A stretch of 64,000 bases of DNA. It comes from a virus (Duplodnaviria > Caudoviricetes). The translations under genes and the position numbers were made by a program. The stretch lies in the IMG/VR virus record IMGVR_UViG_3300038679_000032, positions 516 through 64,515 of that record; one strand, given 5' to 3'. The notes beneath the pieces were generated by a model that saw only the letters and a program-made list of their open reading frames with translations, had not been told where the DNA came from and made no database searches. Below, in pieces: positions 2,796 through 53,900 of this stretch (positions within the stretch are counted from its first letter, which is position 1; each line of letters starts with the position of its first letter).

Positions 2796-3560
2796 TTACG
2801 GAATAGCAACACACAAAGACGGTTGGAATGGAACGCTGACACTATCTTTTTTAGACCTATTTACATCACCCCACATGGGTTGTAGGTTCGACAGGCTCCA
2901 ACACCGCTTAAAATCCAAATCTTCCGGTTTTTCAAAATTGAATGCAGAGATTGGAATTATGTGATCAACATGCCATTCTCCATAATTATCCCAAGACATT
3001 CCATCAATAAACTTCCTCTCAAGAATTACAACAAGGTCGTTTATTCCATACCCAACAAGAGACTCCCACTTCCTGTTCCTCTTTGTTCCGTTTTGAAGGC
3101 TCGCAATAATACCGGACGATATTGCATGAACCAATCTCCCCTTGGGAGTACTGCGCCTCTTGGTGTTCGCACGCCTCATCTGTTCCCTGTATCTATCGGG
3201 ATACTTCCGTCGCCACAGCCTTAGCGCATCTCGCATTTGTGGTACATTTCTGCGTTGCCATTTTAATTTACTTGCCCGTACCTTGTCGGGATTTTCATTT
3301 TTCCACTTTTCAACAGAACGAATAACCGTCTGTGGATGCTTTTTTCTCCATTCTTTTTGTTGTTCAAGAATCTTATCCCTGTTGGATAAATACAGTCCCT
3401 TCCTCCTCTTATTGATTTCATCTCTGTGTAAAGCATAATACTCCATACTTTTCTTCGCACTACACAATCTACATTGTGAATAACGACCATCCTTTATTTT
3501 TTTGCAATGCCAAAAATCATCTAACGGTTTGACTTCCCCACACACAGTACATCGCTTCAT
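2796..3560 (-). mobile_element. Free-standing HNH homing endonuclease 1
   Basis: N-terminal CxxC zinc finger (MKRCTVCGEVK...CRLC) and C-terminal WHVDHIIP...NLQPMW...N; starts immediately after the terL stop. Confidence 0.88.
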
Positions 3561-3561
3561 T

Positions 3562-5178
3562 TTACATAAGCTCCATGAACATGAATTCGGGCGTCCCATA
3601 TAGACACATCATAAAATAATTAAAGGCATGTCTAAAGTGATCCTCTCCAAGGCGAAGGTATGTGTACCTCTGGGAGCCAGTCTCCTCATCTACTTCAAGC
3701 TTTTTCGCCACATTGTGCATATGCAAGGCAAACAATCTTACCAAATCAGATTCCCTTGGTAAAATGATATTTTGTGTTGTAATAACATTATGAGAGGCAT
3801 CTAATGTCTCTGTTCTATTTCCTTGCACCAATAATTGGGGGTCGTTCCACTTTAACGATCCCTTCTGGTATTCATTGTAAAAATTGAGATACACCCTTCC
3901 TCTGAATCGGTCTGCAAAGTTTCGGGCAAACTTTGTATTCGGGAGAGCGTCCACGACGCACCGGACCACCTTAAACCTGTTCATCAGGGCGTCCAACTCA
4001 AACCATCCGCTTTCATCCTTCTCGTTTTTGGAATCGTTCCCCTTATGAACCCCCAAATAAATGACTTCCCCTGTGCGGTTCTCGCACGGCTTCCCGATGA
4101 CGACATGGAGCGTGTTTCCCTGATCGACCCCCATGTAGGTTCCGACTTCGCTTTCACTTGCTATCCCGGAGGTTCCGCAACAGTCCAAGACCTCCTGCAT
4201 GGAAAGCCTGTTTTGGGCTTCGACATAGGCAATTCCGATTTTGAGGTTGTAGAAATCAGTCAGGTTGGTCGTTGTCCGGTAGGTCTGTAAGATAAGGTCC
4301 GGGGCGGTCATCTTGGTTTGAGAATACAACTGAGAATACTGCCTTCCCCTTCGTTCCGTGATTTGTGGCCTTTTGGCAACCCATTCCCCGATAGAAGGGT
4401 CCAACTCGGAATGGCACTTCTCGCATGCTCTTATGACCTTCCCTTTCACCGTCAATAGACAGTCGGGAAAAGTATCCACAAGGTTCGTATAGTGATTGCA
4501 CTTTGGACACTTGAGGAGCCAATACCTCATGTCCGTAGTCTGCCAGAGCTTGTCTATCCCGTAGTCCGGCATGGTCGGGTTCGATAAGAAAAGCATCTCC
4601 CCCGCCTCAGAATGAGCCATTCTTTCCATAATCATATCGACTGATTTAGGGGGAGCTTCATCCAATTCATCAAACACTACAAGGTCCATGGGCGCACTTT
4701 TCATGCCTACGCGCGATTTCATACCCCTTAAATATAGGGCAGTATTGAGGATTTTCTTTACATTCGCCGCATCGGTTTCCTTTATCCATGTCCCTATTGT
4801 TTCCGGGTTGTCCTCAATTAAAGAAGTTATCCTGATTTTACTGAGGTCGGTGACATCGCTTCTTGATGGGAAATAATACCCAATACCGCGGTAATTGCTT
4901 CCCCCGTATTTGGCGGTATGGAACACCCTTAAAATAGCCTTAGAGGTAAGCCCCAACTGGGTTCCTTTTATCTCCACCTGAAACGGATGGGTGTCCTTGT
5001 ATGGCTCGATGAGGTATTCATGCTTCTTGAACGAAAACTCCCTTCCATCGAGGACGATCTGGTTCTTGACGGCCCAGGTTCCCAAATCGGGGCTTTTGTC
5101 CTCCTCCTCCTGAAAAGAGGTTTCAAGAGATTGCATGAGGTTCGCAAACAGTTCAGACTTCTTTGGAGAATAGGTCAT
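3562..5178 (-). CDS. terL: Terminase large subunit, GpA-like
   Basis: KGTQLGLT (Walker A-like), VFDELDE (Walker B), SNPT, CPKC zinc motif, nuclease motifs GVDQG / VVDALP / GEDH. Confidence 0.92.
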   Translation of the reverse strand: MTYSPKKSELFANLMQSLETSFQEEEDKSPDLGTWAVKNQIVLDGREFSFKKHEYLIEPYKDTHPFQVEIKGTQLGLTSKAILRVFHTAKYGGSNYRGIGYYFPSRSDVTDLSKIRITSLIEDNPETIGTWIKETDAANVKKILNTALYLRGMKSRVGMKSAPMDLVVFDELDEAPPKSVDMIMERMAHSEAGEMLFLSNPTMPDYGIDKLWQTTDMRYWLLKCPKCNHYTNLVDTFPDCLLTVKGKVIRACEKCHSELDPSIGEWVAKRPQITERRGRQYSQLYSQTKMTAPDLILQTYRTTTNLTDFYNLKIGIAYVEAQNRLSMQEVLDCCGTSGIASESEVGTYMGVDQGNTLHVVIGKPCENRTGEVIYLGVHKGNDSKNEKDESGWFELDALMNRFKVVRCVVDALPNTKFARNFADRFRGRVYLNFYNEYQKGSLKWNDPQLLVQGNRTETLDASHNVITTQNIILPRESDLVRLFALHMHNVAKKLEVDEETGSQRYTYLRLGEDHFRHAFNYFMMCLYGTPEFMFMELM

Positions 5179-17415: not shown

Positions 17416-19094
17416 CACATCCTCCAAAAGCCCCAATCAATCAATGTGTTAAACATACTCCCATTATTCCTTATTTCGTATTTGAGCCTTTTGCCGTCCA
17501 TTTTGCCTATTTTGGGATGCTTACACTTGATTATCTCCGCAACCCCCACCACATCTTCGTGACTTCCTTCTATTTTCTTCAACGAAATGGCTAATCGGGG
17601 CTTCTCCAAAATCAAATCCCCGGATCGTGGCAGTCTCGCCCCTACCTTATGCTGGACGCAGACAATCGCAATTCCTTTTTGTAGTTTGTCATGGATTTGC
17701 CTCATGTATTCGGCGGCCCTCGTGTAATCCCCCTCTGGAAACTCCAGGTAGTCTATGATATTCAGTCCGTCCGGGTCCATAGCATTAGTCAGATTGTTCT
17801 TTAAGGCAATGTATTTCAAGGATTCATCCGGCATCCAAACCTCTTTGTCTATCCCGAACCACTTGAACCGCCCCTTAATCTCCCTTACCTTCATTTCACT
17901 TGAGGCATACCGGATATTGAACCGATTCCTGTTGTCTACAAGTGTAGAGAGGGCGAACAGCGACTTCCCGGAATTGAATTCCCCAGAACAGAGGATAATG
18001 TTGCCTTGGTAAATATCGACCAGTTCATGCAATCCAAAGGGGAGCTTCAAAACAGACGGCTCACCCTCTTCCTCTTTGAAATCAAGGTACTCAATGTCCG
18101 TGTCAATTCTGCGATACCACCCATCCTTATCCCCGCTTTTTTCGATTGTTAAGCCTTTTCGCCTACTTATCGCTTTTCGTGCCGCAACCATGTCTCTCGA
18201 TGTCACAAAACCGAGTTCCTTGTAACAACTTGTCACACTGAAGTTGCCCTCTGTCACACTTATGAAGGCATCGACCTCGGCTTGGATGTTTCTTTCCTTC
18301 CTTTCTGCACGGTCATAGGCACTCTTGATCTTGGCATTGATCCATGCTTCGTCCTGCTCCCCCCAAGATGATACAATCGCTCGTAATAATTGGCGAATAT
18401 ACTCCGGTGAGTTTGCGGTTTTTACCAGGCAATTTGCCACATGAAAGAGGTTTTCATCCCTACATCCCTCAGCCCAGATGTCACGTTTTGTCTCATTTGT
18501 CACGCATTGTCCATCAACTTTTTGTGACCCCCTATATATATTGTTTGTTTTTAACATAATCTTTAAGTAAGAGATAAAAGATATAGGGACAGGAGAAAGT
18601 GCAGTTTTGTGGATTTCCAATCCTTGCTTCCACGAATAAGGAATGCCGGTTCCGTTAAGTGACGGAGGGGCTACGATGTAGCCAGTCTCCCCCCGATAGT
18701 CCATTGCTATTTGTTCGCATGTACCAATTGATGTGTCGTCCGCGCCCTCGTATAGAAAATATTGATGATCCCCCCCGGACGGGGAAGAGGATGTCGGGGT
18801 GATGATGTTGTCTGGGATTAGTTCAAGTGCCTTCTCTGGATTATAGGTCGGTTTGTATTTGTCGTGGTCCACCACAAACAGGTTACTGATGCGACCCGTG
18901 ATGATGCCTATATTGTAGTTCGGGTTCTTCCCCCACCATTCCCTGATTTGTTCTACGGAGGCCCGTTCCGTCCGGTAAGGGATGACCTCGAAGCCCTTTG
19001 GGGGGAACTTTTGGCCCGGGGCCAACGGTATCACGGAAAAGGACATCTTCTCCCGATACCAGATTGCGGCCTTCAGAAGTTTGTTTTCAGGCAT
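17415..19094 (-). CDS. Bifunctional Prim-Pol primase / PriCT / P-loop helicase
   Basis: NIGIITG..LFVVDHD, HQYF, GYIVAPPS; RDENLF; Walker A GEFNSGKS; Walker B IIDY. Confidence 0.9.
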   Translation of the reverse strand: MPENKLLKAAIWYREKMSFSVIPLAPGQKFPPKGFEVIPYRTERASVEQIREWWGKNPNYNIGIITGRISNLFVVDHDKYKPTYNPEKALELIPDNIITPTSSSPSGGDHQYFLYEGADDTSIGTCEQIAMDYRGETGYIVAPPSLNGTGIPYSWKQGLEIHKTALSPVPISFISYLKIMLKTNNIYRGSQKVDGQCVTNETKRDIWAEGCRDENLFHVANCLVKTANSPEYIRQLLRAIVSSWGEQDEAWINAKIKSAYDRAERKERNIQAEVDAFISVTEGNFSVTSCYKELGFVTSRDMVAARKAISRRKGLTIEKSGDKDGWYRRIDTDIEYLDFKEEEGEPSVLKLPFGLHELVDIYQGNIILCSGEFNSGKSLFALSTLVDNRNRFNIRYASSEMKVREIKGRFKWFGIDKEVWMPDESLKYIALKNNLTNAMDPDGLNIIDYLEFPEGDYTRAAEYMRQIHDKLQKGIAIVCVQHKVGARLPRSGDLILEKPRLAISLKKIEGSHEDVVGVAEIIKCKHPKIGKMDGKRLKYEIRNNGSMFNTLIDWGFWRM

Positions 19095-19098
19095 AGCC

Positions 19099-19293
19099 TT
19101 ATCTCAGGAGCAAGTCCTTCGGGTCGATCCGCAAGGTGCGTGCAATCAATGTAAGCGTCTTCAGGGTGGTGGATTGGGATAACAGCATCTTTGAGTAGGT
19201 GCTGTCCGTCAACCTGAACCGCCTTGAAAACGCCGACATGGATAGATTCAGCTTCTTGCGCTCGTTTTCCAGTTTTCGTATATTGAGTCTCAT
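19099..19293 (-). CDS. XRE/Cro-type HTH regulator
   Basis: 64 aa, LSMSAFSRRFRLTDSTYSKM...TLKTLTLIARTL; sits at a divergent promoter. Confidence 0.8.
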   Translation of the reverse strand: MRLNIRKLENERKKLNLSMSAFSRRFRLTDSTYSKMLLSQSTTLKTLTLIARTLRIDPKDLLLR

Positions 19294-19355
19294 GGGGTGG
19301 GATAATAAATCCTTTCCGGGGAAAAGTCAAGAAATGTTTTTTCTGAAAATAATTC

Positions 19356-19384
19356 TTGACAAACGGGGAAGCATCATATAGACT
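19356..19384 (+). promoter_or_regulatory. sigma70-like promoter for the rightward block
   Basis: TTGACA-17 bp-TAGACT. Confidence 0.7.
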
Positions 19385-19602
19385 GCACCCAAACTCACGA
19401 CACGCCCTCTCGACGAACATCAGGCCGCGAGCTTCCGAGGAGGGGCCAGAGCCAGGGGAAGAGGGGAAACGGGCCACGGGTAAAGTCATCGCCCAATGTG
19501 GTTAAGGTGGGTGCCTCGGATGCGGCGAGCGGGGGAAGTGGTTCTTTGGACTTGGGTGGGGGTTCCAGGGATGCCCCCACCCGCTACCAAACGGAGGTAA
19601 GT

Positions 19603-19929
19603 ATGCACACCGAATCTACAGCGGGAAAAGACCCTACGGCATGGGCGCGGCAAATCTTTGACACGGTATCCAAAATTAACAAGGAATACAAGGAAAATCT
19701 TTACTGCCATGAGTGCGGGAAAAGGTTTCTCCCCAAAAATGACAGGGAAAGGCAAAATTACTACTCGTCGGGGATGTGTGCGGAATGTGAACAGGCGGCC
19801 CTTTGTGAGCCGTCGAAAGACCCGGTGATTATGTACCTCGGGGAGATTCTGGCGGAAGTGGTTAAGATCAAGGAAACCATCGGTGACATTACAGACATGA
19901 TTGCAAAGGAGAGGAAAGATGAACGGTAA
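19603..19929 (+). CDS. Hypothetical zinc-binding protein
   Basis: GGAGG SD; CHECG...CAEC. Confidence 0.6.
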   Translation: MHTESTAGKDPTAWARQIFDTVSKINKEYKENLYCHECGKRFLPKNDRERQNYYSSGMCAECEQAALCEPSKDPVIMYLGEILAEVVKIKETIGDITDMIAKERKDER

Positions 19930-20335
19930 AATAGCGAAGATTGATTCAAACGACATCACCAAAAAGGACGGAACACCAACCACGCTGTATAAGGTCTCTT
20001 TCGTTGGCGATTCCACAGTCTATGAGACATGGGACACCAAGGGCGCGAAGGTTGGGGACGAAGTAGAGGGGACAACGGGGACAAGGGAATGGCAGGACAA
20101 GACATTCCACACCATCAAAATTTCAAAGGTGCTTCCCCCGAAATCAGACTTTCCGCCTTCAAGTGCTTCGGAACCCGGGGGGAAGAACAATTCTTTCGCC
20201 GCCTCTTACGCCAAGGACATTGCAGTAGCCTGTATCGCACAGGGAATTATCGGCAATTCAAAGGACATTGAGGCCGTGGTCAATCACTTCTTCACCGTGT
20301 TCACCGACCTTCTAAACAGGTCTTACGATTTATAG
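19919..20335 (+). CDS. Putative SSB-like OB-fold protein
   Basis: Beta-rich N-terminus, linker, ASYAKD helix; lies before the exonuclease. Confidence 0.5.
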   Translation: MNGKIAKIDSNDITKKDGTPTTLYKVSFVGDSTVYETWDTKGAKVGDEVEGTTGTREWQDKTFHTIKISKVLPPKSDFPPSSASEPGGKNNSFAASYAKDIAVACIAQGIIGNSKDIEAVVNHFFTVFTDLLNRSYDL

Positions 20336-20343
20336 GGTGTCTT

Positions 20344-20529
20344 ATGTATATCTGTGTCGGGTGCAAGAAAGAAATGGTTTGCGACAAGAACAGCGTTGGG
20401 GCGGATTTTGGTAACGGGCATGTGTATCCTTCGGATCGGTTCCGATGCCCTCAATGCGGAACGATGATTCTGGCAACCAACGGACACCATCGTATGACCC
20501 GGATTATAAGTTTCAAGACGAATACATGA
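20344..20529 (+). CDS. Small zinc-ribbon protein
   Basis: CVGC...CPQC. Confidence 0.55.
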   Translation: MYICVGCKKEMVCDKNSVGADFGNGHVYPSDRFRCPQCGTMILATNGHHRMTRIISFKTNT

Positions 20530-20539
20530 GGATGAGGTA

Positions 20540-20578
20540 ATGGAAATCAAGCGTAGCCCGGAAAGGGAAAGTACTTGA
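20540..20578 (+). pseudogene. Relic 5' end of the Cas4-like nuclease gene (MEIKRSPERE)
   Basis: GAGGT SD; peptide nearly identical to the start of 21432..22289. Confidence 0.75.
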
Positions 20579-20609
20579 CTAATTTACCTATAGGTGATAC
20601 CCTGTGGCC

Positions 20610-20777
20610 GTGAAAATAGATATTCAAAAACTTAAATGCTTGAGGTGTGGCCATGAGTGGTATCCAAGGTTACCTGAGATCAGAATATGCCCAAAATGTA
20701 AATCGGCTTACTGGGATAGAGAAAGAATGTGTGAATTGCCACCAAAAGAAGAGCGTTGGCCTATTTACAAGGGATAG
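20610..20777 (+). CDS. Zinc-ribbon protein (CLRCGHEWYPR...CPKCKSAYWD)
   Basis: Hand translation from GTG 20610; preceded by TTGACT-17-TACCCT. Confidence 0.6.
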   Translation: MKIDIQKLKCLRCGHEWYPRLPEIRICPKCKSAYWDRERMCELPPKEERWPIYKG

Positions 20778-21441
20778 AACACGGCCAGATGGGTACCACC
20801 CATATTGTAAGATATGCAGAAACACACTACGCAAGTCAGGAGATAAGGAAAAACTTTTCAGACAAGGGGTTCGGTATAGAGAAAAGCATAAAGATGATTT
20901 ACGAAAGAAGAAACAGATATTTTATCAAAAAAATAAAAAGCAAATTAATGAGAAAAATAAAACATACTATCAACAACACAAAGAAGAGATTCGGATAAAG
21001 GCAATGGCTTATTACCAAAACAACAAGGATGCTACCAAAGAGAGATCGTATGCTTGGCTTAAAAACAAACTCTCAAAAGATCCTGTATTTAGAATGATAC
21101 ACCGATTCCGTTTCTTAATAGGGTATGCGTTAAGGGGTAAAAAAAACAGAAGGCGGTGGGAATCGTTGGTTGGATACACGCCAGAACAACTTAAAAATCA
21201 TATTGAAAGCCTATTTGTTGATGGAATGTCTTGGGACAATTATGGTCGTGGAGGGTGGCACATAGACCACATAATCCCAATCTCAGCATTCAATTTTGAG
21301 AAGCCGGAGGATTTGGATTTTAAGCGGTGTTGGAGTCTGTCGAACCTACAACCCATGTGGGAACAAGAAAATTTCAGGAAAAACAGGTTTCTTAAAAAAT
21401 CCTTTCAACCATCGCTTCTACTGGGGGAATCATGCAAATAA
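20647..21441 (+). mobile_element. Free-standing HNH homing endonuclease 2 (start uncertain)
   Basis: CVNC...CKIC finger; WHIDHIIP...NLQPMW. Confidence 0.88.
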
Positions 21442-22289
21442 AAAGAAGTCCAGAAAGAGAAGAATACCTTTTCAAGACAATCATCAACTCCTTTTTTGAA
21501 CGGGACAAGGACAGGGCTGAGTCCATTCACCTATCCGACCTTCTCTATCCAAGACAGGCATATTGGAGAAGGAAGCACCCCCTCCCGGCAACAAGGAGCG
21601 AAGTGCAATACTGGGTTATCGGGCGGGGCCATGAGGATGTGTTTCACCATGTTACCGGATTGAAACACATTGAAGTTCGGGAGTGGGAAGGAATCGTCTA
21701 TAGTATAGACTTCTTTTTAGACAATCCCAATGAGATGAAAACCCGCAGAGGCTATCTTGCGAAGGATGGGGAAGAACCAGAGCGGTATGAAAGCTATTTA
21801 CATCAACTGAGGGGGTATTGTGCTTGCGAATATAAACAGAAGGGGGAGCTGTGGGTATGGAGCCTTTTAGAAAAGGTGGACGCATACAAGTCGGCCCCTG
21901 TTTTGGCGTGTTATGATGTCCTTTTTACCGAGGAGGAGTTGGAGGAAGAACGGAAATCGCTTTTAACGCGCAAAAACGGCCTTCAGAGCGCACTTGACTA
22001 TATCTTCGACCCCTTTATCGAAGATGTTCCTTCAATGCCTTGGATGGCCCTTCCTGCGTGTCCTGGGTGGATGTGCATAGACACCTTGACTACGATGATT
22101 AAAAAGCCCTACTGTAAAACCTGTAATCGAGAATTTGAAGGCGAATGGGGGATCAATAAGCATTTGGATTCCAAAACAGGGAAGGGGCATGAAACGGAAG
22201 GGGCGGTGTTCGAGAAAACCGTGGTTCCAAAATGTAAATACTATCCAATGTGCTTGGGAGGGGAATCATGGCCGGAAAAGTCAGTATAG
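21432..22289 (+). CDS. PD-(D/E)XK Cas4-like exonuclease
   Basis: HLSDL, GRGHE, SID, EMKT, QLRGY motifs; Cys cluster at C-terminus. Confidence 0.75.
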   Translation: MQIKRSPEREEYLFKTIINSFFERDKDRAESIHLSDLLYPRQAYWRRKHPLPATRSEVQYWVIGRGHEDVFHHVTGLKHIEVREWEGIVYSIDFFLDNPNEMKTRRGYLAKDGEEPERYESYLHQLRGYCACEYKQKGELWVWSLLEKVDAYKSAPVLACYDVLFTEEELEEERKSLLTRKNGLQSALDYIFDPFIEDVPSMPWMALPACPGWMCIDTLTTMIKKPYCKTCNREFEGEWGINKHLDSKTGKGHETEGAVFEKTVVPKCKYYPMCLGGESWPEKSV

Positions 22290-22435
22290 ATTTTCGGAAT
22301 GATTGTTGGTGGTTCCGTTTATACGGGGACAAGGGGCAGATGATAGATATATGGGAGGTGGGGACCGGGGATGTGACGGTGATGTTCGCGGCCTACCAGA
22401 AGTTGTATCTGATTGAACCGAAAAAGGAGGGGTGA
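22268..22435 (+). CDS. Hypothetical protein
   Basis: GGGG SD; overlaps the nuclease end. Confidence 0.5.
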   Translation: MAGKVSIDFRNDCWWFRLYGDKGQMIDIWEVGTGDVTVMFAAYQKLYLIEPKKEG

Positions 22436-22569
22436 TTATGCTTATCAAACTCGTAAAATGGTTCATTAAAAAGTATCTTCCGGGGTATTCGCTCCACAGG
22501 AATCCGGGGAAAAGGAAACAGTCTATAGTATAGACAAAAGGCGCAAAGACGATCTTTGCGACAATTCAA

Positions 22570-22651
22570 GGGCGGGCGCGAAAGCGTGAGGGGAGCGAGT
22601 AAAAGCCGGAAATTATAGCAGTAGCTCTAACTTACCAATCCGGCCCCGCCC
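22570..22651 (+). ncRNA. Candidate structured RNA A
   Basis: GGGCGGG/CCCGCCC closing stem, GCGC-GAAA-GCGT tetraloop, CCGGA/TCCGG stem. Confidence 0.4.
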
Positions 22652-22667
22652 CCGATCTTTTGAAAAA

Positions 22668-22768
22668 GCTGTCATGGCATCCTGGTTAGAATCCGGGTGC
22701 TAAATAGGTATCGTGGAAGACGGCCTGTAGCGTAGTAGGGCAGACTCAGACCCTCGTGCCATGACAGC
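22668..22768 (+). ncRNA. Candidate structured RNA B
   Basis: 12-bp closing stem GCTGTCATGGCA/TGCCATGACAGC enclosing three hairpins. Confidence 0.45.
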
Positions 22769-22921
22769 CCCTTTAGGAGGGGGGGTGATTAAACTGCCTA
22801 AGAGAAATCGCTGTGCAATGTGCGGTGAAGAAGTATTGAACTTTGACCTTCACAAGTGCGTACGTCTTAGCCAGTAGTAACAGGGGGCCGCATCCTGAAT
22901 AAACACGCATAGGAGGGAGAG

Positions 22922-23107
22922 ATGGACAAGAAATTTAAGCGCATAAAAGCCCCTTGTAGTTTCTGCTTACGCAAAGGTCAACCTGCCCTTATAGCCTCTC
23001 CCTTGCACAACAAGCGGCGGGTCTATATCTGCTTTCAATGCGTCGAGGTCTGCATGAAGGGTGTGCTGGAGGAGAGGTATTCATGGAAGGAGAAAGCCGA
23101 TGAATAA
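22922..23107 (+). CDS. Stand-alone ClpX-type C4 zinc-binding domain protein
   Basis: CSFC...LIASP...VYICFQCVEVC matches the ClpX N-domain pattern. Confidence 0.7.
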   Translation: MDKKFKRIKAPCSFCLRKGQPALIASPLHNKRRVYICFQCVEVCMKGVLEERYSWKEKADE

Positions 23108-23387
23108 CAACCGAAGGTTCGCAGAGCTGGTAAATCCCGGCAAAGACTGTACCTACCATCCCGACTTCACCGACGCAAAGGAAGTGCTGAAGGTGATGAG
23201 AAAGATGTGTGACGACAGGGGGAGAAGCTGGCCGCGCTTTCGGGACTATTTAATGACAGAGGGTTATAAAATTGACCCGGTTAGGCATGAGCTGACAAAC
23301 CTTGTTGACCTCATCCTCGACACCACAGGCAAGCTCAGGGATTTGGCTATCGCGTGGATGGAGGGGAGGAAGGAGGCCGCTAAATGA
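23100..23387 (+). CDS. Hypothetical protein
   Basis: Overlapping start. Confidence 0.55.
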   Translation: MNNNRRFAELVNPGKDCTYHPDFTDAKEVLKVMRKMCDDRGRSWPRFRDYLMTEGYKIDPVRHELTNLVDLILDTTGKLRDLAIAWMEGRKEAAK

Positions 23388-23465
23388 TTATTCGCAGCCC
23401 CTTAACGTAATTCATTTATGCAAACGATGCCACAATGACATCCATATTGAAATGAGGATAGCAAG

Positions 23466-23663
23466 ATGAGTGAGATACTTAATTTTATGAGACAACTGTA
23501 TATTATGTATTGCTGGCCCGTGTGGGTTATCTCTGGCGGCGAAATCGAAGTAAAGTATGAATGGAAAAATGCTGAGGCCGAAAAACTTTATAATCTTGGA
23601 GCGTTGCTTCTTGATAATGCCAGATTGACGCTACCTCAAAGTGTGTTCAAGGAGGGGGTATGA
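23466..23663 (+). CDS. Hypothetical protein
   Basis: ORF track; coupled to the next gene. Confidence 0.5.
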   Translation: MSEILNFMRQLYIMYCWPVWVISGGEIEVKYEWKNAEAEKLYNLGALLLDNARLTLPQSVFKEGV

Positions 23664-38880: not shown

Positions 38881-41800
38881 TTATGTTTTTGTTGTCGCAA
38901 CCTGCACCGCACCCATCAAGGGCTGGTCAACTACTTGAATACTTGTAGCAATCGGGGCGGCGACTAATTCAACATCTTCAACTATCGGACCCGCAACTCT
39001 TAAAATATCCTGAACGGTTGGATAAGCTACCCGGGTGATTTCCTTTACTGACGGAACCGTAGCGGATACCGGGCCAATTTCCGGGTGCGCTACCAGGCTG
39101 ATATTAGAGGGACGCGGGTAGGCGATCCTGCTTACACCGGAAGGTTTAATGTGAATCCACGGCGTAGGTGAAGGGGACGGGGACTCACTTGGGCTCTCCG
39201 AGGGGGAACCGGAAGGGCTTTTAGACGGAGAAGCCGATGCACTTGGGCTCAGACTTGGAGAGGCTGAGGGGCTCAGGCTGGGGCTCTGGCTTGGTGAACC
39301 ACTCGGGCTTGCACTCGGGGACAGAGACGGACTCTGCGTCGGTGAGGCCGAGGGGCTCGCGGAGGGGGACAGGCTCGGACTCTCACTCGGGCTGGCAGAG
39401 GGGCTCAGGCTCGGTGATTCGCTTGGACTCGCGGATGCCGAAGGACTTAGGCTTGGGCTTTCGCTTGGGCTAAGGCTCGGGGACTGGCTTGGCGATTCTG
39501 ATGGTGAGGCCGAAGGGCTCTCACTCGGGCTTTCGCTTGGCGAAACCGAGGGACTCTCCGAAGGACTCGCAGAAGGAGAGAGGCTCGGTGACTCACTCGG
39601 GGAAGCCGAGGGGCTTTCCGATGGCGACTCGGAAGCAGACGGTGAAAGACTCGGGGACTCCGATGGACTTTCCGAAGGGCTTGGGGTTCCCGCCGCCGAG
39701 GGGCTTTCACTCGGACTCTCGCTTGGTGATTCGGACGGACTTTCCGAATGGCTCTGACTCGGGCTTTCGGAAGGGCTTTCCGAGGGGCTAAGGCTTGGGC
39801 TCTCCGAGGGCGATTCCGAGGGCGACTCGCTTGGGCTCAAGCTCGGACTTTCAGAAGGGGATTCTGACGCACTTGGGCTGAGTGAGGGGGACTCACTCGG
39901 GCTTTCTGATGGACTCAGCGACGGCGATTCGGAAGGCGATTCACTTGGGCTCTCGCTCGGTGATTCACTTGGACTTGCCGAAGGACTCTCTGATGGGCTC
40001 TCAGAGGGGCTTTCGGAAGCGGACGGACTTAGACTCGGGCTTTCGCTCGGAGACTCGCTGGGGCTTAATGAAGGGCTTTCAGAAGGTGATTCTGAAGGCG
40101 ACAGACTCGGACTCTCTGACGGCGAAGCTGAAGGTGATGGACTGAACCCTGCCGAAGGTGACGGTGAAGGACTTTCACTCGGGGATTCGCTTGCACTCGG
40201 GGAGAGGCTCGGACTTTCCGACGGCGACTCCGAGGGAGATTCAGAAGGGGAAAGACTGAGGCTTTCCGATGGTGAGGCGCTCGGGCTCTCCGAAGGTGAT
40301 TCAGAAGGGCTTGCCGAGGGCGAAACACTTGGGCTCTCCGAAGGGCTTTCCGAAGCCGAAGGACTTAGGCTTGGACTTTCGGAAGGGCTCTCGCTGGGAG
40401 ATTCTGATGGGCTCTCCGAAGGGCTTTCCGAGGGAGACTCAGAAGGGCTTAATGAAGGCGACTCCGAAGGACTCTCTGACGGTGATTCGCTTGGACTTTC
40501 CGAGGGGCTCAGGCTCGGACTTTCGCTTGGAGAGGCCGAAGGACTTAGGCTTGGACTCTCTGAGGGGCTTGCAGACGGCGATTCAGAGGCCGAAGGGGAA
40601 AGGCTTGGCGACTCACTCGGACTCTCGGAAGGACTTGCTGAAGGGCTAACAGAAGGTGATTCTGAGGGGCTTTCAGACGCAATCTCCCCTATTCTCAGGA
40701 CAACATCTTCGACATACTGCACCGTTGCAGATGAAGGAGATGGGGAGGGTGATTCACTCGGACTCTCCGAAGGGGACTCCGAGGGGCTTTCACTTGGACT
40801 TTCTGAGGCCGAAGGAGAAACACTTGGCGATGCAGAGGGACTCTCCGAGGGGCTCTCGGACGCACTTTCCGAGGGCGATTCCGAGGCACTTTCCGAAGGG
40901 GATTCCGAGGGCGACTCCGAAGGGCTTTCGCTTGCCGACGGAGAAACGGACGGGCTCTCGCTTGGACTCTCCGACGGACTTTCACTCGGGGATTCGCTTG
41001 CACTCGGGCTCTGGCTTGGGCTTTCAGAGGGGCTCTCGGATGGCGAAGCACTCGGACTTAACGAAGGGCTTTCGCTGGGGCTCTCCGAGAAACTCGCACT
41101 TGGAGACGCAGAAGGTGATGCGCTTGGGGATGCCGAGGCCGAAGGGGAAAGGCTCGGCGACTCACTCGGACTTTCTGAAGGCGACGCTGAGGGGCTAGCG
41201 GAAGGTGAGGCACTTGGACTTGCCGAAGCACTTTCCGACGCTCCAGGCTGTTTGAATGCCGCAACAATCATTACCGAGTTTGAATCGGTTTGGGCAAGCG
41301 CAGAGAAGGTTCCGGTGGTTCCTGAATTGACCTTAATTGCGTCTGCTATGAATAACCCGACATCCGCCCCGGTATTACTTCCTTCGTCTTGCCGTTCCTG
41401 CCATGTATTGTTAGCCGGTTCCGTAGTGGGGGCAACAGTTCCGTTTGAAGCCACGCTTGGTGCCGTTGCCGCATCCATCGTTGTTGTTGTGGAGTTGTCC
41501 CCGTGGGCAATCATCGCCACAAGGAGTTCATTTGCACCAGCGGTGCTTATCGCTGTCCCGGTGGGTTCAGTTACGGACCCGGCTTGGGTGGTCGAACTCG
41601 TATCATAGGGGGTGGATGTGTTCCCACGATAGGTAACTGTTCGGCCCATCGCAACATCGCCAGCGGTCCGGGTAAAGACATAACTTGGGGGACTTGCACC
41701 CCTGATGCAATACCACATCCCCCCGGAAGCGACACCATTACTTGAATCCGTATCCCCGGCGTAGAGTTGCCCGATCTGAGTCCATTCCGCAGAAGGCTTG

Positions 41801-41937
41801 GTAATCTGAGTGTTGGACCGGAACGCAATACAAGCAACAATCAAATCACCCGTAGTGGTCCCCGTAGGCTCAGCAAGGGTGATGTTGCCGCCATCCTGTA
41901 TGACCTGCGTTCCTAATGCTATGATTTCCCAAGCCAT
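38881..41937 (-). CDS. Virion fibre-like protein with very long Ser-Pro repeat
   Basis: ~230 aa beta-rich N-domain, ~690 aa (SPSX)n, C-terminal 11-aa repeats. Confidence 0.8.
39165..41240 (-). repeat. (Ser-Pro-Ser-X)n coding repeat, block 1
   Basis: Translation; short unique interruption near 40680-40735. Confidence 0.95.
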
Positions 41938-43208
41938 TACAGGGTTGACTCCACTTTAATCTGCACGAACCCTAAAGAATTAAACGGGTTTGCATACAGG
42001 TTCCAATCCGCCGCTTCACACGCAACCCTTGTCGCCCCGTGTCTATAGTATAGACTCACCGCATCCCCCGCCCGATACACATTCATCAGTAAGGTGACAG
42101 ACCCCAATCCGGTTTCGCACACTTCAGAGGTCATGTCCTCACCCGCTTCAAGGGCCAATCGTTCCTCATCCCCGGAGTTCTGAATCTCCCCGGTCCCCGT
42201 CCAATGGTCCTGAAATGGGAATATGTTTTCCTCCAAGACATCCGTAACATGGCCCCAACACACCTCCCCCACAGGGGCAGACGGTGAGGCACTCGGACTC
42301 TCGGAAGGACTCGCGCTGGGAGAAGCGGAAGGGCTGGCACTTGGACTCGCAGAAGGAGAAGCCGAGGGTGATAAAGAAGGACTCTCACTTGGGCTGGCCG
42401 AAGGGGAAAGACTCGGACTGGCCGAAGGGCTTTCCGAAGGGGAGGCACTTGGCGACGCACTTGGACTTGCCGACGCACTTGGGGACAGACTCGGGCTTTC
42501 GCTTGGACTCTCTGATGGCGACGCCGAAGGACTTAACGAAGGAGAAGCACTTGGGCTTGCCGAAGCCGAAGGTGAAAGACTCGGACTCTCCGAGGGACTT
42601 TCCGAGGGGCTTGCGGAAGGCGACGCTGAAGGACTTGCACTTGGGGACGCACTCGCCGAGGGGCTAAGACTTGGGCTTTCCGAAGGACTTTCTGATGGAC
42701 TCTGGCTCGGTGAAGCACTTGGGGAAGCCGAAGGGCTAAGGCTCGGACTTGCTGACGGCGACTCAGAAGGGGAAGCGGACGCTGAAGGACTTAGACTCGG
42801 TGACTCACTCGGAGATTCTGAAGGGCTCGCACTTGGGCTGAGGGACGGGGAAGCACTCGGGCTGGCCGATGGCGACGCAGACGGAGATGCCGAAGGAGAG
42901 GCAGAGGGGGAAGCTGACGGGCTCGCAGACGCAGAAGGACTTAGACTCGGACTTTCAGACGGGCTCTCGCTGGGACTAAGGCTCGGTGACGCGCTGGGCG
43001 AAGCGGAAGGAGATGCGCTGGGGCTTGCCGAGGGGGAAGCCGACGGTGAGGCTGAAGGTGACGCCGACGGGGACGCACTTGGGCTTGCGCTCGGTGAGGC
43101 TGAAGCACTCGGGCTGAGAGAAGGGCTACCGCCGTATTCCTGATACCATTGGACATCGGCACGGTCTAACCAATCTACATCAGCAGTTGAACGCCATTGA
43201 ACATCCAT
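41937..43208 (-). CDS. Ser-Pro repeat virion protein
   Basis: Short N-terminus, ~280 aa repeat, ~115 aa beta-rich C-domain. Confidence 0.8.
42280..43128 (-). repeat. (Ser-Pro-Ser-X)n coding repeat, block 2
   Basis: Translation. Confidence 0.95.
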
Positions 43209-43275
43209 CGTCGTCCTATAAAAATGGGGGCCGTAGGAATAAGACCCCCATTCTTCATTCCGGGGCCATCACCCC

Positions 43276-43620
43276 TTAACTCGTCACTTGCTGAACAATC
43301 GTCACCGTGCCTTCCAGTAGCCGTGTCACGGTCCCGCCAAGCTCCGTCAATTCGCAATCCCAATACCCGGACCAGTAAGTGAATGTTTCCGTGACAGCGG
43401 CGGCCATTGTCAAGGTGATTACCGAGGTGGTCGTGTCTATCGCGGCGGTGAAATCTATCGAGGAAGTGGAATCCTTCGTTTCCCTCACGGAAGCGGCACA
43501 GGAAGCCCCGGTAAGGTCATAGAGTTCACCATCCTCATCCACGACGGTGAACTCTATCCCAAAATCCGCCCCTTCTTCGATCCGGTAATCCTTTTTCAAA
43601 TTAAGTGTGGTTGCAGGCAT
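43276..43620 (-). CDS. Small Ig-like tail protein (BppU-N-like)
   Basis: IEEGADF...YDLTG...W..Y.D.EL...LLEG.V. Confidence 0.6.
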   Translation of the reverse strand: MPATTLNLKKDYRIEEGADFGIEFTVVDEDGELYDLTGASCAASVRETKDSTSSIDFTAAIDTTTSVITLTMAAAVTETFTYWSGYWDCELTELGGTVTRLLEGTVTIVQQVTS

Positions 43621-43629
43621 TCTATCCTC

Positions 43630-44712
43630 CTAATAGGGATTCTCACTCGGAGACTCCGAAGGCGACACAGAAGGTGACGCAGAGGGCGAAGCCGAGGCAC
43701 TCGGAGACAGGCTCGGAGAAGGACTCGGGGAACCAGACGGCGATTCGCTCGGGCTGGCACTCGGAGAATTGCTCGGGCTACGCGACGGAGAAGCAGAAGG
43801 AGACTCAGAGGGCGAAGCGGAAGCACTCTCACTTGGGCTACTCGACGGAGATGCCGACGGAGACTCGCTTGGGGATGCAGAAGCCGACGGGCTAAGACTC
43901 GGTGACTCAGAAGGTGACTCAGAAGGGGAGGCCGAAGGCGACTCGCTCGGGCTGGCACTCGGGGACTCAGAGGGTGAGGCCGAGGCACTTGGGCTAAGGC
44001 TTGGGCTTTCCGACGGGGACTCAGAGGGAGAAGGACTTGGAGATTCCGACGGGGAAGCGGAAGCCGAGGGGCTAAGGCTCGGAGATTCGGATGGACTCGC
44101 CGAGGCCGACGGACTGAGCGACGGTGATTCAGACGGAGAGGCAGAAGCCGAAGGTGAAGTAGAGGGCGAAGCCGATGGCGATTCGCTCGGTGAAGCCGAA
44201 GGCGACAGGCTCGGGCTGAGTGACGGTGAAGCACTTGGAGACTCGCTCGGGCTGAGTGACGGTGAAGCAGAGGGCGACAGACTCGGTGAGGCCGAGGGGC
44301 TGAGTGACGGAGAAGCACTCGGGGAAGCACTTGGACTCTCCGAAGGCGACGGCACCGCGACACCAGAAATCAGGCTGTCGTGCAGTATGATAATCTTGTC
44401 TGCCGCCGATACCGAAGCAGAGAACCCGGGGCTTACCGTAAAGGTTCCTGTCGAAGAAGTGTAATCCACAATCTGCCTTATCTGCCGTTCCGGGACATTC
44501 CCGTGAACGGAAGCATTGAGCAAGACCTGTAGGTAATACTTCCCCTTTCCTGCTACGGTGCTTGAGAAGTAGTCATCTCCATATCCGGCCAAGGAAGCGA
44601 CTGTAATCGCCGTCGTGCTGTCTGACGAATTGGTGCATGTCCCTACATACGCCAGACCGTCGTGGCCGAATCCTACGACCGGGACGATGTTACTGAAATT
44701 GAAATTACTCAT
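43630..44712 (-). CDS. Ser-Pro repeat virion protein
   Basis: ~120 aa beta-rich N-domain followed by repeat to the C-terminus. Confidence 0.8.
   Translation of the reverse strand: MSNFNFSNIVPVVGFGHDGLAYVGTCTNSSDSTTAITVASLAGYGDDYFSSTVAGKGKYYLQVLLNASVHGNVPERQIRQIVDYTSSTGTFTVSPGFSASVSAADKIIILHDSLISGVAVPSPSESPSASPSASPSLSPSASPSLSPSASPSLSPSESPSASPSLSPSLSPSASPSESPSASPSTSPSASASPSESPSLSPSASASPSESPSLSPSASASPSESPSPSPSESPSESPSLSPSASASPSESPSASPSESPSASPSESPSESPSLSPSASASPSESPSASPSSSPSESASASPSESPSASPSRSPSNSPSASPSESPSGSPSPSPSLSPSASASPSASPSVSPSESPSENPY
43640..44352 (-). repeat. (Ser-Pro-Ser-X)n coding repeat, block 3
   Basis: Translation. Confidence 0.95.
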
Positions 44713-50993: not shown

Positions 50994-53900
50994 CTAAGCC
51001 GTATGTTCACGCTCTTTCTGGTAAAATACACTAAAATACAAAGGTTCCATCCCCTTAGTCTCGTCGCCTGAAGTGGAGGACAACCCGAATGAATGGAATA
51101 CCGCCGGGGTCGAATAAATATCCTCCACATCGTTTGCGTATCTGTGTGAAGCGTCTGCAACCGATAAAGTGTAATCAGTCCCGGTTGCGCTTCCGTCTTT
51201 ATAATGAGTGAAGGTCACGCTTGAATCCGTGTTCTTCGCTACAGATACAAGGTTTGCCCTGAGTATTCTTGTTTCAGACAATAGGTCCTGAGGGATGGGG
51301 AGCTGGTCCCCGGTTTTAAGGGTGCAAGTAATATCCGTCCCGTCGAAGTCGGTCCCGTTTTCAAGCCTCTCCATGTATCCGGTATCAAGGAATCCGTAAG
51401 CAAACTGGTTCCCCTCATCGTCGGATACCATGATCCCGCATTGGAGCCTCTTATTGGTTCCTCTGTCAATCTCAAACCATCTCCACTTACGAAGGTCCAA
51501 GACATATTCCTTGTCGAGTTCATTATTGGTCACGGCTGTGAGCGTCGCGGCCCCGGTAGCGATACCAACCGTATCGGTCCCCTGAAGGATTCTTTCCCCG
51601 CTCACCCATGTTCCGGTGACAAGCCTCATGTAAATATACCCGGTAGCGAACCCTGTTGAGGGAGAAGCACTTGGGGATTCAGAGGCCGAAGCCGAAGGGC
51701 TTGTAGAAGGGGAGGGGGACGGACTCTCGCTCGGGGACGCACTCGGGGACGCACTCGGACTGGCGGAAGCACTTGGGCTAAGAGAAGGACTTGCGCTTGG
51801 ACTCACAGAGGGAGAAGCACTTGGGGATTCCGAAGGACTCGCGGATGCGCTTGGGCTGAGTGAGGGCGACTCAGAAGGACTCTCTGATGCAGAGGGGCTT
51901 TGTGATGCCGAGGGACTCAGACTTGGGGATTCCGATGGTGATTCAGATGCACTCGGGCTGAGGCTTGGGGACGCCGATGGACTCTCTGACGCACTCGGAC
52001 TCAGCGACGGGCTTGCAGATGGGGATAGGCTCGGACTGAGTGAGGGGCTTGCACTTGGACTCTGCGAAGCCGAGGGACTCAGAGAAGGACTCGCCGAAGG
52101 ACTCAGGCTTGGGCTTGAACTCGGGGATGGGGACGGGCTTTCGCTCGGGCTTGCACTTGGAGAAGCACTTGGAGAATGGGGGGTCCATGTCCCTGAATAA
52201 ACTACATGGTCCACCACCCCCGTAGCCCCGCTGGTGTTTCCGGTAATCGTATCCCCCGCAGACGGCTCGACGCTTCCTTCTTCAAAGGGAATCTCATAGA
52301 GGTCCGTCGAGAACATCCAATGGTATTCCATCTTGTCGTGGTCGATAAAGGCCACTTCCTGCCCCAAAGTAGATAAACTGGCGTGGGTGGTCTTGGTCTT
52401 ATCGAATACATCTCTAATGTCGTTTGAAACACACAAGGGAGCCTGACCGTTTGAAATGTAGATTCCGTTATGCCCTCTCCATATCGCTATGACCTTAGTG
52501 GCATTGATGTTATGCTCAAAAGCTACCGAAGCGGTCCCGATGGTTCTTGGGGCTGGACACCCGATAATCGGGGAAATCTTGTATCTTTCCCAAAGAGTCT
52601 CTTCAAGGTTCTGGGACCAAGTAAGGGACCAAGTTTCAGTCTCTTTGAATAAAAGGACCATGTTGTAGATATTGGAGGCGTACTGTGCGAAGATGGAGGT
52701 TCCCCCGGTAACTTCCTTGTCATCCCCGAAAAGAATCGAAAAGCTGTCATCCCCATTGAAAACATCGGGTCTGTTCTGTGCGGAGATAAAGAGTTCGTTC
52801 TTGCTTCCGTAATTGTCACAACCAAGCATCAATCGGTCTGCGGCATGTAAAGAGAAGCTGTACCCTTCAATCTGTTCCGAAACGGTGATTCCCCCGCAGA
52901 AGTAGATTCTCGTAGTCGCGTCAAGGTTCTTGTCCCACTTCACTCGGTAGTAATATAAAGAATACCCGTTGTTGATGGTTTTCTCTTGTTCAAGGGATAC
53001 ATCGGAATTGTTCCACGAAATGACCCCGGTTTTGGAAAGCGAAATCGAGCCTTCGGAAGTCTCGTCAGAAACGGTGCCTACGGTGAGGTATTCCTTCCCA
53101 TCCCAGTAATCCACGGAAACAGAAGTAGCGGCGGTGGTGTTCTCGTACCCCGCTGGGACGCTGAAGATAATCCCGGTCATCTTAGAGGTGAACCCGATTT
53201 CAAGGTACTGCGTCGTCGCGGTCAAAGAGCTAATATCGACATAAGTGTACGAATCAGAGGAGTCATAGACTTCTTCTCTGATGTTTAAGATGTAGTCCTG
53301 ATATGAAGTGGTATAGACATAGAACCCCGCAGGAGGAGCGAAAACACCATCCCACAAATCCACGAGAGGTTGGAACGGGGCATCAAGCGTGACCTGATAA
53401 AGCTGTACCGTAGCGTCAATTCCGACAAACGAGAACCTATAATAATACAGATACGAGGACTCCACGAAAGTAGCTTTCGCAAGGTCCACCGTGGTATCAA
53501 AGGTGATACTTCCGGTTTGGGCAAGCGTCTTTCCCCCGACAGCGGTTCCGTCTGTAGCGTTGGTAACAGCGGTCCACGCAGACCCGTTCCAGTAAGTCAC
53601 CGATACGGTAGCGGCGGTTGTGTTGGCGTTTTTGAGGTAGAACTTCACCCCCTTAATGGGCCTCACGGACCCGATGTAGCAGTTGGAAGTGTTCCCCCCG
53701 GCGGTATCATACTTTAGAGTAATATAGTCTTCCGTATCGGAATTAGTTAAGTATTCCGTATGGTCATAGAGAAAAGCGTCAAGCGAATCGTAATTCAGAA
53801 ACCTTGCGCACTCTATCTCATCCCCACCCCATATGCATGAATCTCTACCATTACAGTAGACTACTTGTCCGTTGGGGGCGTCCGAGAATTGCCCGAATGT

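Follow-up and report, generated by a model that had tools for sequence, protein, structure and literature searches.

In a tailed-phage genome (Duplodnaviria; Caudoviricetes) that is deposited as a 64.5-kb IMG/VR virus record rated complete (IMGVR_UViG_3300038679_000032), the 5′ end of a gene for a 285-amino-acid (aa) nuclease-like protein is present twice, once as a short broken stub and once as the start of the intact gene, and the two copies are separated by a stretch of DNA that encodes an HNH endonuclease. We analysed 64,000 nucleotides of this record (positions 516 to 64,515), referred to below as the window, and its coordinates are counted from its first letter. The arrangement is probably the result of a free-standing HNH homing-endonuclease cassette having entered the phage via one-sided (partly illegitimate) homing, and in our reading the footprint is a natural trace of such an event rather than the mark of a new kind of element.

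The stub begins with an ATG at 20540 that overlaps a TAA stop codon (TAATG). Its ten sense codons (MEIKRSPERE) agree with the live start; they are followed by codon 11 minus one base and then by TAC TTG, and the frame is terminated by a TGA at 20576-20578. The live gene opens with MQIKRSPERE at 21432, and its frame stays open from there onward. Over the two copies, 27 of the 38 aligned bases are identical (~71%) and nine codons differ, seven or eight of them synonymously (the lost base leaves codon 11 uncertain) and one by a replacement (E2Q). Direct reading confirms the coordinates and the description that the original prediction, an earlier annotation of this DNA, had given for the stub and the live start, and its statement that the peptide is nearly identical with mostly synonymous differences also holds, E2Q being the only replacement. 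Similarities of this kind were sought more widely in a duplicate-end scan, in which the DNA upstream of homologous HNH genes was compared with the DNA downstream of them at ~80 HNH loci in viral contigs; mismatched locus pairs served as the null and gave maxima of 38 (10-residue windows) and 40 (local alignment). The stub/live pair of the window scores 47, above these maxima, and chance similarity is therefore excluded.

A comparison with the closest relative of the invaded gene (P0002/L004, 78% aa identity) indicates which of the two copies is the native one. The stub differs from this relative in eight codons, all of them synonymous, and shares its residue 2 (E). Since only synonymous differences and one lost base have accumulated, the stub must have been under purifying selection, as the start of a working gene, until very recently, and it is too well preserved to be old. 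The seven or eight synonymous differences and one replacement that set the live copy apart from the stub speak for separate evolution under selection, not for decay in place.

Composition points the same way. In codons 1-13 of the live gene, G or C is found at 1 of 12 third positions, against a fraction of 0.54 in the remainder of the gene, and the switch is sharp and falls at the codon 13/14 boundary, which is where the stub ends. Among 63 ORFs (open reading frames) of the window only one 5′ end is this AT-rich; we take it to be that of the 285-aa gene. The third positions of the stub are GC-rich and host-genome-like (the mean GC content of the window is 0.49 and the mean GC content at third positions, GC3, over its ORFs is 0.55). 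Because the first 13 codons are AT-rich and the gene is normal from codon 14, these codons appear to belong with the cassette, as compositional evidence of co-conversion of donor flanking DNA, whereas the stub, the upstream genes and the body of the 285-aa gene appear to belong with the phage. The original prediction had described the 5′ end as rebuilt and recoded. It was right in that the cassette carries the 5′ end now in use, but nothing need have been designed: a donor allele of the 13 codons fits better, and we would read the apparent recoding as the divergence of that allele.

Between the two copies lies an AT-rich block of ~0.9 kb (GC content 0.39 against 0.49 for the window), both flanks of which match the composition of the genome. 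This stretch is a discrete, foreign and self-contained cassette made up of a promoter, a small zinc-ribbon ORF and the HNH gene (Table 1), and the same trio recurs in other phage contigs beside unrelated genes. A self-contained unit of ~0.9 kb had indeed been proposed, with a TTGACT-17-TACCCT promoter, a 55-aa zinc-ribbon ORF and an HNH tail that supplies the Shine-Dalgarno (SD) sequence, and all of these parts are present. A search for the zinc-ribbon and HNH pair at other loci, suggested at the same time, did find the pair, for instance at loci L015, L017, L018, L041 and L096, where the zinc-ribbon ORF is conserved (41-63% identity).

Table 1. The duplicated gene start, the cassette between its copies and the adjoining genes (window coordinates).
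Feature	Positions	Strand	Remarks
Native upstream small gene	20344..20529	+	61 aa, Cys-rich; left flank of the insertion; from the ORF list
Stub (relic) of the native 5′ end of the 285-aa gene	20540..20578	+	38 bases; codons 1-13, one base lost
Cassette promoter	20575..20603	+	TTGACT 20575-20580, 17-base spacer, TACCCT 20598-20603
Small zinc-ribbon ORF	20604..20777	+	57 aa from GTG 20604, 55 aa from GTG 20610
HNH (His-Me finger) endonuclease gene	20653..21441	+	262 aa; PHROG 1035 match
SD-like GGGGGAA for the new start	21423..21429	+	inside the HNH tail; read directly
Replacement 5′ end, codons 1-13	21432..21470	+	probably arrived with the cassette (third-position composition)
Invaded gene, intact	21432..22289	+	285-aa single ORF, normal start

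The promoter spacer contains a perfect 10-base palindrome, ACCTATAGGT (20586-20595), and a TG one base upstream of the second hexamer; a simple promoter scan made no call at 20575-20603, though the stretch aligns with the conserved element of the relatives. The left junction between stub and cassette lies inside or just before the first hexamer, and the bases CTTG are common to the stub end and this hexamer. As the zinc-ribbon ORF starts only 1 or 7 bases past TACCCT, it is probably leaderless. At this start the relatives have two ATGs (ATGACTATG), whereas the window has GTG at both places (20604-20612, GTGGCCGTG); since GUG may serve poorly as a leaderless start, the zinc-ribbon ORF of the window may be decaying or little expressed.

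The HNH gene begins at an ATG (20653) that is nested in His-Glu-Trp codons of the zinc-ribbon ORF, in the +1 frame and 5 bases past GAGGTG, and the conservation of the N-terminus among homologues fixes this start. Its tail shares 10 bases with the new start of the 285-aa gene. With a start, a stop and a promoter-like element of its own it has the make-up of a free-standing gene, and its composition (GC 0.38, GC3 0.39) is set off from the mean GC3 of the window ORFs. The protein matches PHROG 1035 (‘endonuclease VII’, E 8.5e-16) and has more than 1100 homologues, some of them named HNH or McrA by their sources, of which the best is only ~40% identical to it. The catalytic columns H203, D205, H206, N231 and N240 are invariant in the homologues, and all of these residues are present in the window protein.

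Two other ways of reading the cassette were rejected. An endonuclease borne by a group I intron or an intein finds no RNA family match (there is no Rfam match in 19000-23500), and the downstream gene has its own full N-terminus. A programmed frameshift that fuses the zinc ribbon to the HNH protein fails as the principal reading: in-frame fusion was found in 0 of 120 homologues, there is no slippery run at the frame change in the window, and the 20 overlap-encoded residues are modelled as disordered. Slippage is conceivable in some members, L041 and L096 having A-runs of 7-9 bases. For neither protein did a sequence-profile search of the PDB yield anything informative.

A second HNH paralogue is encoded elsewhere in the window (2796-3560, minus strand; ~35-40% aa identity). 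It begins 2 bases past the stop of a gpA-type terminase large subunit gene (3562-5178, minus strand) and has no zinc-ribbon ORF or promoter. In a 148-base tract of the catalytic core (2870-3011 against 21214-21361) the two paralogues have 86% DNA identity, far above that of the remainder of the genes, which could be gene conversion or simply strong constraint.

The invaded gene has 18 homologues, in which D93, E101 and K103 (a D...E.K pattern) are invariant. The AlphaFold model of its protein is confident, with a predicted local distance difference test (pLDDT) score of 86, and the structures that it resembles most are those of Cas4 SSO0001, a phage exonuclease and lambda Exo, though at weak E-values (2e-3 to 5e-2). 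The gene probably encodes a PD-(D/E)xK recombination nuclease, Cas4/lambda-exonuclease-like, with a C-terminal Cys/His cluster. An HNH gene within ~3 kb of the homologue was found in 0 of ~15 distinct relative loci, and the HNH gene therefore seems to be sporadic at this locus, as a free-standing homing endonuclease gene is. The original prediction had proposed a comparison with cassette-free relatives; it yielded these ~15 HNH-free loci, and L004, which has a different upstream gene, starts like the stub, but no cassette-free sibling came to light. Specifically, a single-protein query with the invaded gene gave no close relative in IMG/VR, while a profile search gave nine loci there, none with an HNH gene nearby. 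A degenerate pattern leading from the native start into the gene had no match in viral or JGI metagenome contigs, the exact AT-rich start gave no match when used as a query for donors, and the deposited phage genomes contained no match to the invaded gene.

The same layout recurs at other HNH loci. At L041 (score 84) a ~30-codon stub of TerL, confirmed by Pfam, is joined to the same type of promoter at a shared CTTGA, so that the left junction lies at the first hexamer of the promoter as in the window; the order is again stub, promoter, zinc-ribbon ORF and HNH gene, and the stop of the HNH gene overlaps the start of the full TerL gene. Three contigs from three metagenomes (L037, L039 and L040; score 50) have a 14-codon stub of a 659-aa ORF, with third positions that are GC-rich in the stub and AT-rich in the live copy. 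L096 is a 3′-end mirror image, in which a decayed cassette is followed by a second copy of the end of a 682-aa BT4734-like (primase-type) gene; here the last 13-16 codons stand at 2070-2125 and again at 2812-2868 of the contig, flanking a cassette with the HNH gene in pieces. At L070, an HNH gene of the same family has a diverged copy of one entire small gene on either side (2337-2501 and 3416-3604; 54 and 62 aa), and here a very short gene may have undergone the same process. L070 and L036 (score 44) are ambiguous and were left out of the firm cases.

From these structures we infer cleavage by the HNH protein, the position of the cut and the pathway of repair. In the donor phage, the cassette would have stood directly upstream of the donor version of the 285-aa nuclease gene, with the HNH tail overlapping its start, and would have comprised a leaderless zinc-ribbon ORF behind a promoter that carries a palindromic operator, and the HNH gene read from the nested out-of-frame ATG. 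In a mixed infection, the HNH enzyme would have acted on the cassette-free gene and cut it close to the border between codons 13 and 14. The right break end could then have paired with the donor gene and primed copying that ran leftward from codon 13 to codon 1 of the donor and on through the HNH gene and the zinc-ribbon ORF as far as the promoter, which was copied as well. On the left side the copied strand would have been unable to pair, because the upstream neighbours of the two phages would differ (as the different upstream gene of L004 suggests), and it would have been joined to the unresected left break end at the 4-base microhomology CTTG. Native codons 1-13 would have stayed behind as the stub, minus one base, while the severed start would be replaced by codons 1-13 of the donor together with the SD that the HNH tail contains, so that the gene would remain functional. 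The stub and the foreign tract both end at codon 13 (within ~2 codons), as a break at this position with undegraded ends predicts. One-sided homing with microhomology junctions has been demonstrated experimentally in T4 (PMC2988022, citing Parker et al. 1999). The loss of the target site had also been predicted earlier: neither copy keeps the original site intact, which would make the cassette safe from cutting by its own enzyme.

Several observations weigh against this account. The insertion point is placed by composition and by a relative of 78% aa identity, with the searches for donor and sibling negative, and the codon 13/14 boundary is resolved to ~2 codons only. Two independent joints lie exactly at the first hexamer of the promoter, which is more of a coincidence than random microhomology joining predicts, and the lost base is 8 bases away from the junction rather than at it. 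No Pfam HNH family matched the putative endonuclease at E up to 0.1, and its structural model (pLDDT 76) finds Hpy99I, the HNH domain of ZRANB3, colicin E9, Gme HNH and the HNH domain of Cas9 in the top Foldseek rows with weak scores only (E ≥0.6).

The two coinciding left joints could also be expected if the cassette were a dedicated element that replaces gene ends, having fixed ends (from the first hexamer to the 13th codon), a deliberately diverged spare start in every case and an insertion mechanism of its own. Such an element would further agree with a front end that is conserved from the first hexamer onward in dozens of loci, with a spare end and a stub that are exactly coextensive, and with the case of MobA, which shows (bioRxiv 10.1101/2022.08.31.505936) that HNH elements can carry a diverged copy of their target. 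We nevertheless find it unlikely. Stubs are present at only ~4-5 of the 72 HNH loci (~5%) and 1 of the 76 zinc-ribbon loci over which they were counted, and elsewhere (L015, L017) cassettes of this subfamily are placed cleanly between genes. This rarity rules out obligatory spare ends and marks the stubs as an occasional by-product, not a built-in feature. Moreover, the duplicated length varies (13, 14 or ~30 codons, or a whole small gene), the piece at L096 is a 3′ end, and the spare end comes from a different gene at each site and hence cannot be a fixed part of the element.

An explanation without any cut is improbable in our view. Phage genomes are mosaic, and ordinary illegitimate recombination between two phages could have left a moron-like joint in which the HNH protein served a different purpose, such as nicking or a part in packaging; the second HNH paralogue of the window, right after the terminase large subunit gene, does occupy a packaging-linked position (PMC3592412). 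Against this, the duplicated piece lies exactly at the right edge of the cassette at no fewer than three independent loci, each with a homologous HNH gene. The two junctions fall at one and the same codon, where a break would place them, and a homing-type nuclease or TnpB adjoins the zinc-ribbon ORF in over half of the loci. An in-place tandem duplication of the gene start, recoded later by drift or by selection against recombination, would account for two copies that form direct repeats around an insert, but it is very improbable: the dead copy has no replacement changes relative to the closest relative and one lost base, so that little time can have elapsed, while the live copy has changed in 9 of 13 codons, nearly all of them toward A/T with a cassette-like bias, and a pristine dead copy beside a heavily changed live one cannot be produced in this way. 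An assembly chimera of two co-occurring strains, a natural concern with a metagenomic virus contig, can practically be discounted, since the stub and junction DNA is 100% identical in two Logan assemblies of other runs (L187 and L188; 4000 and 2814 bases), making three independent assemblies with identical DNA across the stub/cassette region, since copies of ~71% identity are too different to confuse an assembler, and since analogous structures exist in unrelated contigs.

One-sided homing of a free-standing cassette thus remains the explanation that we prefer, and the promoter and zinc-ribbon front end of this cassette extends well beyond the present HNH family. The zinc-ribbon ORF has 329 relatives in IMG/VR, no relative in 50,697 deposited phage genomes and no Pfam family. 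Of 74 distinct loci with related zinc-ribbon ORFs, 46 have a -35/-10 pattern upstream, compared with 8.5% of control windows, and the promoter/palindrome element is conserved at the DNA level, as an alignment of six cassettes shows. The ORF downstream of the zinc-ribbon ORF was classified in 57 distinct loci: it belongs to HNH_3 in 13, HNH in 4, HNH_5 in 3, GIY-YIG/NUMOD3 in 3, TnpB in 3 and AP2 in 2, and roughly seven (our own estimate, this family being invisible to Pfam) are members of the HNH family of the window, the remainder being ordinary phage genes. A homing-type nuclease or TnpB is the neighbour at more than half of the loci. At others of the IMG/VR loci with the zinc-ribbon ORF (L108-L186 as a whole) it precedes Rep_O, methylase, integrase, SNF2 or ParB genes.

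Most of these next ORFs overlap the zinc-ribbon ORF in the +1 frame, and the ATG of the nuclease is nested in His/Tyr-Glu/Gly-Trp codons of the latter. The nested ATG is associated with a long +1 ORF (16 of 24 against 8 of 45; Fisher p = 1.2e-4), which favours an independent start over frameshifting. A broader proposition would be that the front end is portable and common to at least five unrelated families of selfish nucleases (EndoVII-like HNH, HNH_3, HNH, HNH_5 and GIY-YIG) as well as TnpB, and that the cassettes move as units with their left end at the first hexamer and habitually bring replacement gene ends. We offer it tentatively and are inclined to doubt it in this full form. If true, such cassettes would invade coding sequence harmlessly and would form a distinct class of phage mobile elements with a regulator, and possibly an insertion mechanism, of their own. 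In any case the zinc-ribbon mini-gene is very common, unannotated and found with many kinds of phage nuclease, which it may regulate or guide.

Some further features of the window are given for completeness. The Cys-rich upstream gene has a GC content of 0.46-0.54, as in the rest of the window, and weak zinc-ribbon Pfam matches only. It ends at 20529, and a second frame (20445-20540) reaches the TAA that overlaps the stub ATG; the pattern of frames at 20344-20540 suggests an old frameshift or chance, the DNA being the same in three assemblies. Back-to-back promoter-like sites are found at 19099-19384 (TTGACT-17-TATTAT on the minus strand and TTGACA-17-TAGACT on the plus strand), adjoined by a 64-aa ORF (19099-19293, minus strand) that is helix-turn-helix-like by eye only, and together they look like a divergent regulatory switch. 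Finally, 39300-44300 and 51700-52150 contain many diverged internal repeats (63-85% identity, units of ~60-600 bases), and the repeats within and between these two regions resemble those of repeat-domain tail-fibre or surface proteins.

The combination of a stub and a spare start (i) marks, from sequence alone, the probable position of the cut of a homing endonuclease and the repair of the break, (ii) provides a natural record of one-sided, microhomology-joined homing, which had previously been produced only with T4 laboratory constructs, and (iii) supplies, for an HNH enzyme as yet uncharacterised, a target site that can be tested directly. It also shows how homing genes can enter phages with different neighbour genes, and enter coding sequence non-lethally, which helps to explain the spread of such genes across mosaic phage genomes.

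Among known systems, one that is close in layout is MobA of the T4-like phages (bioRxiv 10.1101/2022.08.31.505936, citing Bonocora et al. 2011), an HNH homing endonuclease with flanking extensions; the likeness is one of arrangement. In both cases an HNH homing element resides inside a conserved phage gene and has its own diverged homologous copy of the target, so that the function of the host gene survives and the site is, or in the window would be, no longer cut; in the window, this element-borne homologue is 21432-21470, as compared with the stub at 20540-20578. In MobA (with ‘homR’ and the gene 60 bypass), 55-75 native bases are deleted, the gene is split into two ORFs and ribosomal bypass is needed. 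The window shows no segment deletion, split gene or bypass; instead, the native piece is kept as an upstream stub, and the gene is in one piece with a new start and SD.

A second parallel comes from the ‘mORF’ gene hybrids of fungal mitochondria (atp6 of Allomyces macrogynus; atp6, atp9, cox2 and nad3 of Glomus; PMC3630166), in which a mobile endonuclease ORF brings a foreign gene end and the native end stays as an unexpressed duplicate. As in the window, most differences between the copies are synonymous, and it is the native copy that agrees with the nearest relative. These hybrids concern the 3′ end, LAGLIDADG or GIY-YIG enzymes and organelles, whereas in the window it is the 5′ end of a phage gene that was replaced, by an HNH cassette, with L096 as the phage version at a 3′ end. 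The common signature, namely a duplicated end flanking an endonuclease ORF, a relative-like native copy and a foreign copy in use, is found in the window too. Replacement of a 5′ end means that the cassette has to bring a start codon and an SD.

With regard to the repair event, the T4 one-sided homing construct (PMC2988022) likewise combines homology on one side, a microhomology junction on the other and an ectopic context; that case is a laboratory one with an intron-encoded enzyme and extensive degradation, while in the window the event is a natural one, the gene is free-standing and the broken ends have lost almost nothing. The free-standing Seg and Mob homing genes of T-even phages (PMC2988022, PMC2790892) are also sporadic, lie beside or between conserved genes, co-convert flanking DNA and are thought to cut the neighbour gene of cassette-free phages (intronless homing). 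The classical cases have no duplicated stub, because both flanks are homologous, and no promoter/zinc-ribbon front end. For the latter, the ‘Group 4’ phage HNH proteins of Xu and Gupta (PMC3592412) are a near match in arrangement: a small zinc-ribbon protein, proposed by these authors to be a regulator or specificity subunit, is encoded beside the HNH gene. Group 4 enzymes are cos/terminase-linked nickases whose genes are separate or fused, whereas the small ORF of the window runs out of frame into the start of the nuclease gene and has a conserved, palindrome-bearing promoter in front of it, and at other loci ORFs of its kind stand before nucleases of other families.

In the literature searched, we found no published phage example in which a 5′-end stub adjoins a gene for a homing endonuclease. 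It is known in principle, from MobA and from the fungal hybrids (PMC3630166), that mobile endonuclease genes can arrive with a diverged version of the stretch of gene that they displace. What is new is its 5′-end form in phages, with the native start left behind as a datable stub and the cassette built on a zinc-ribbon front end.

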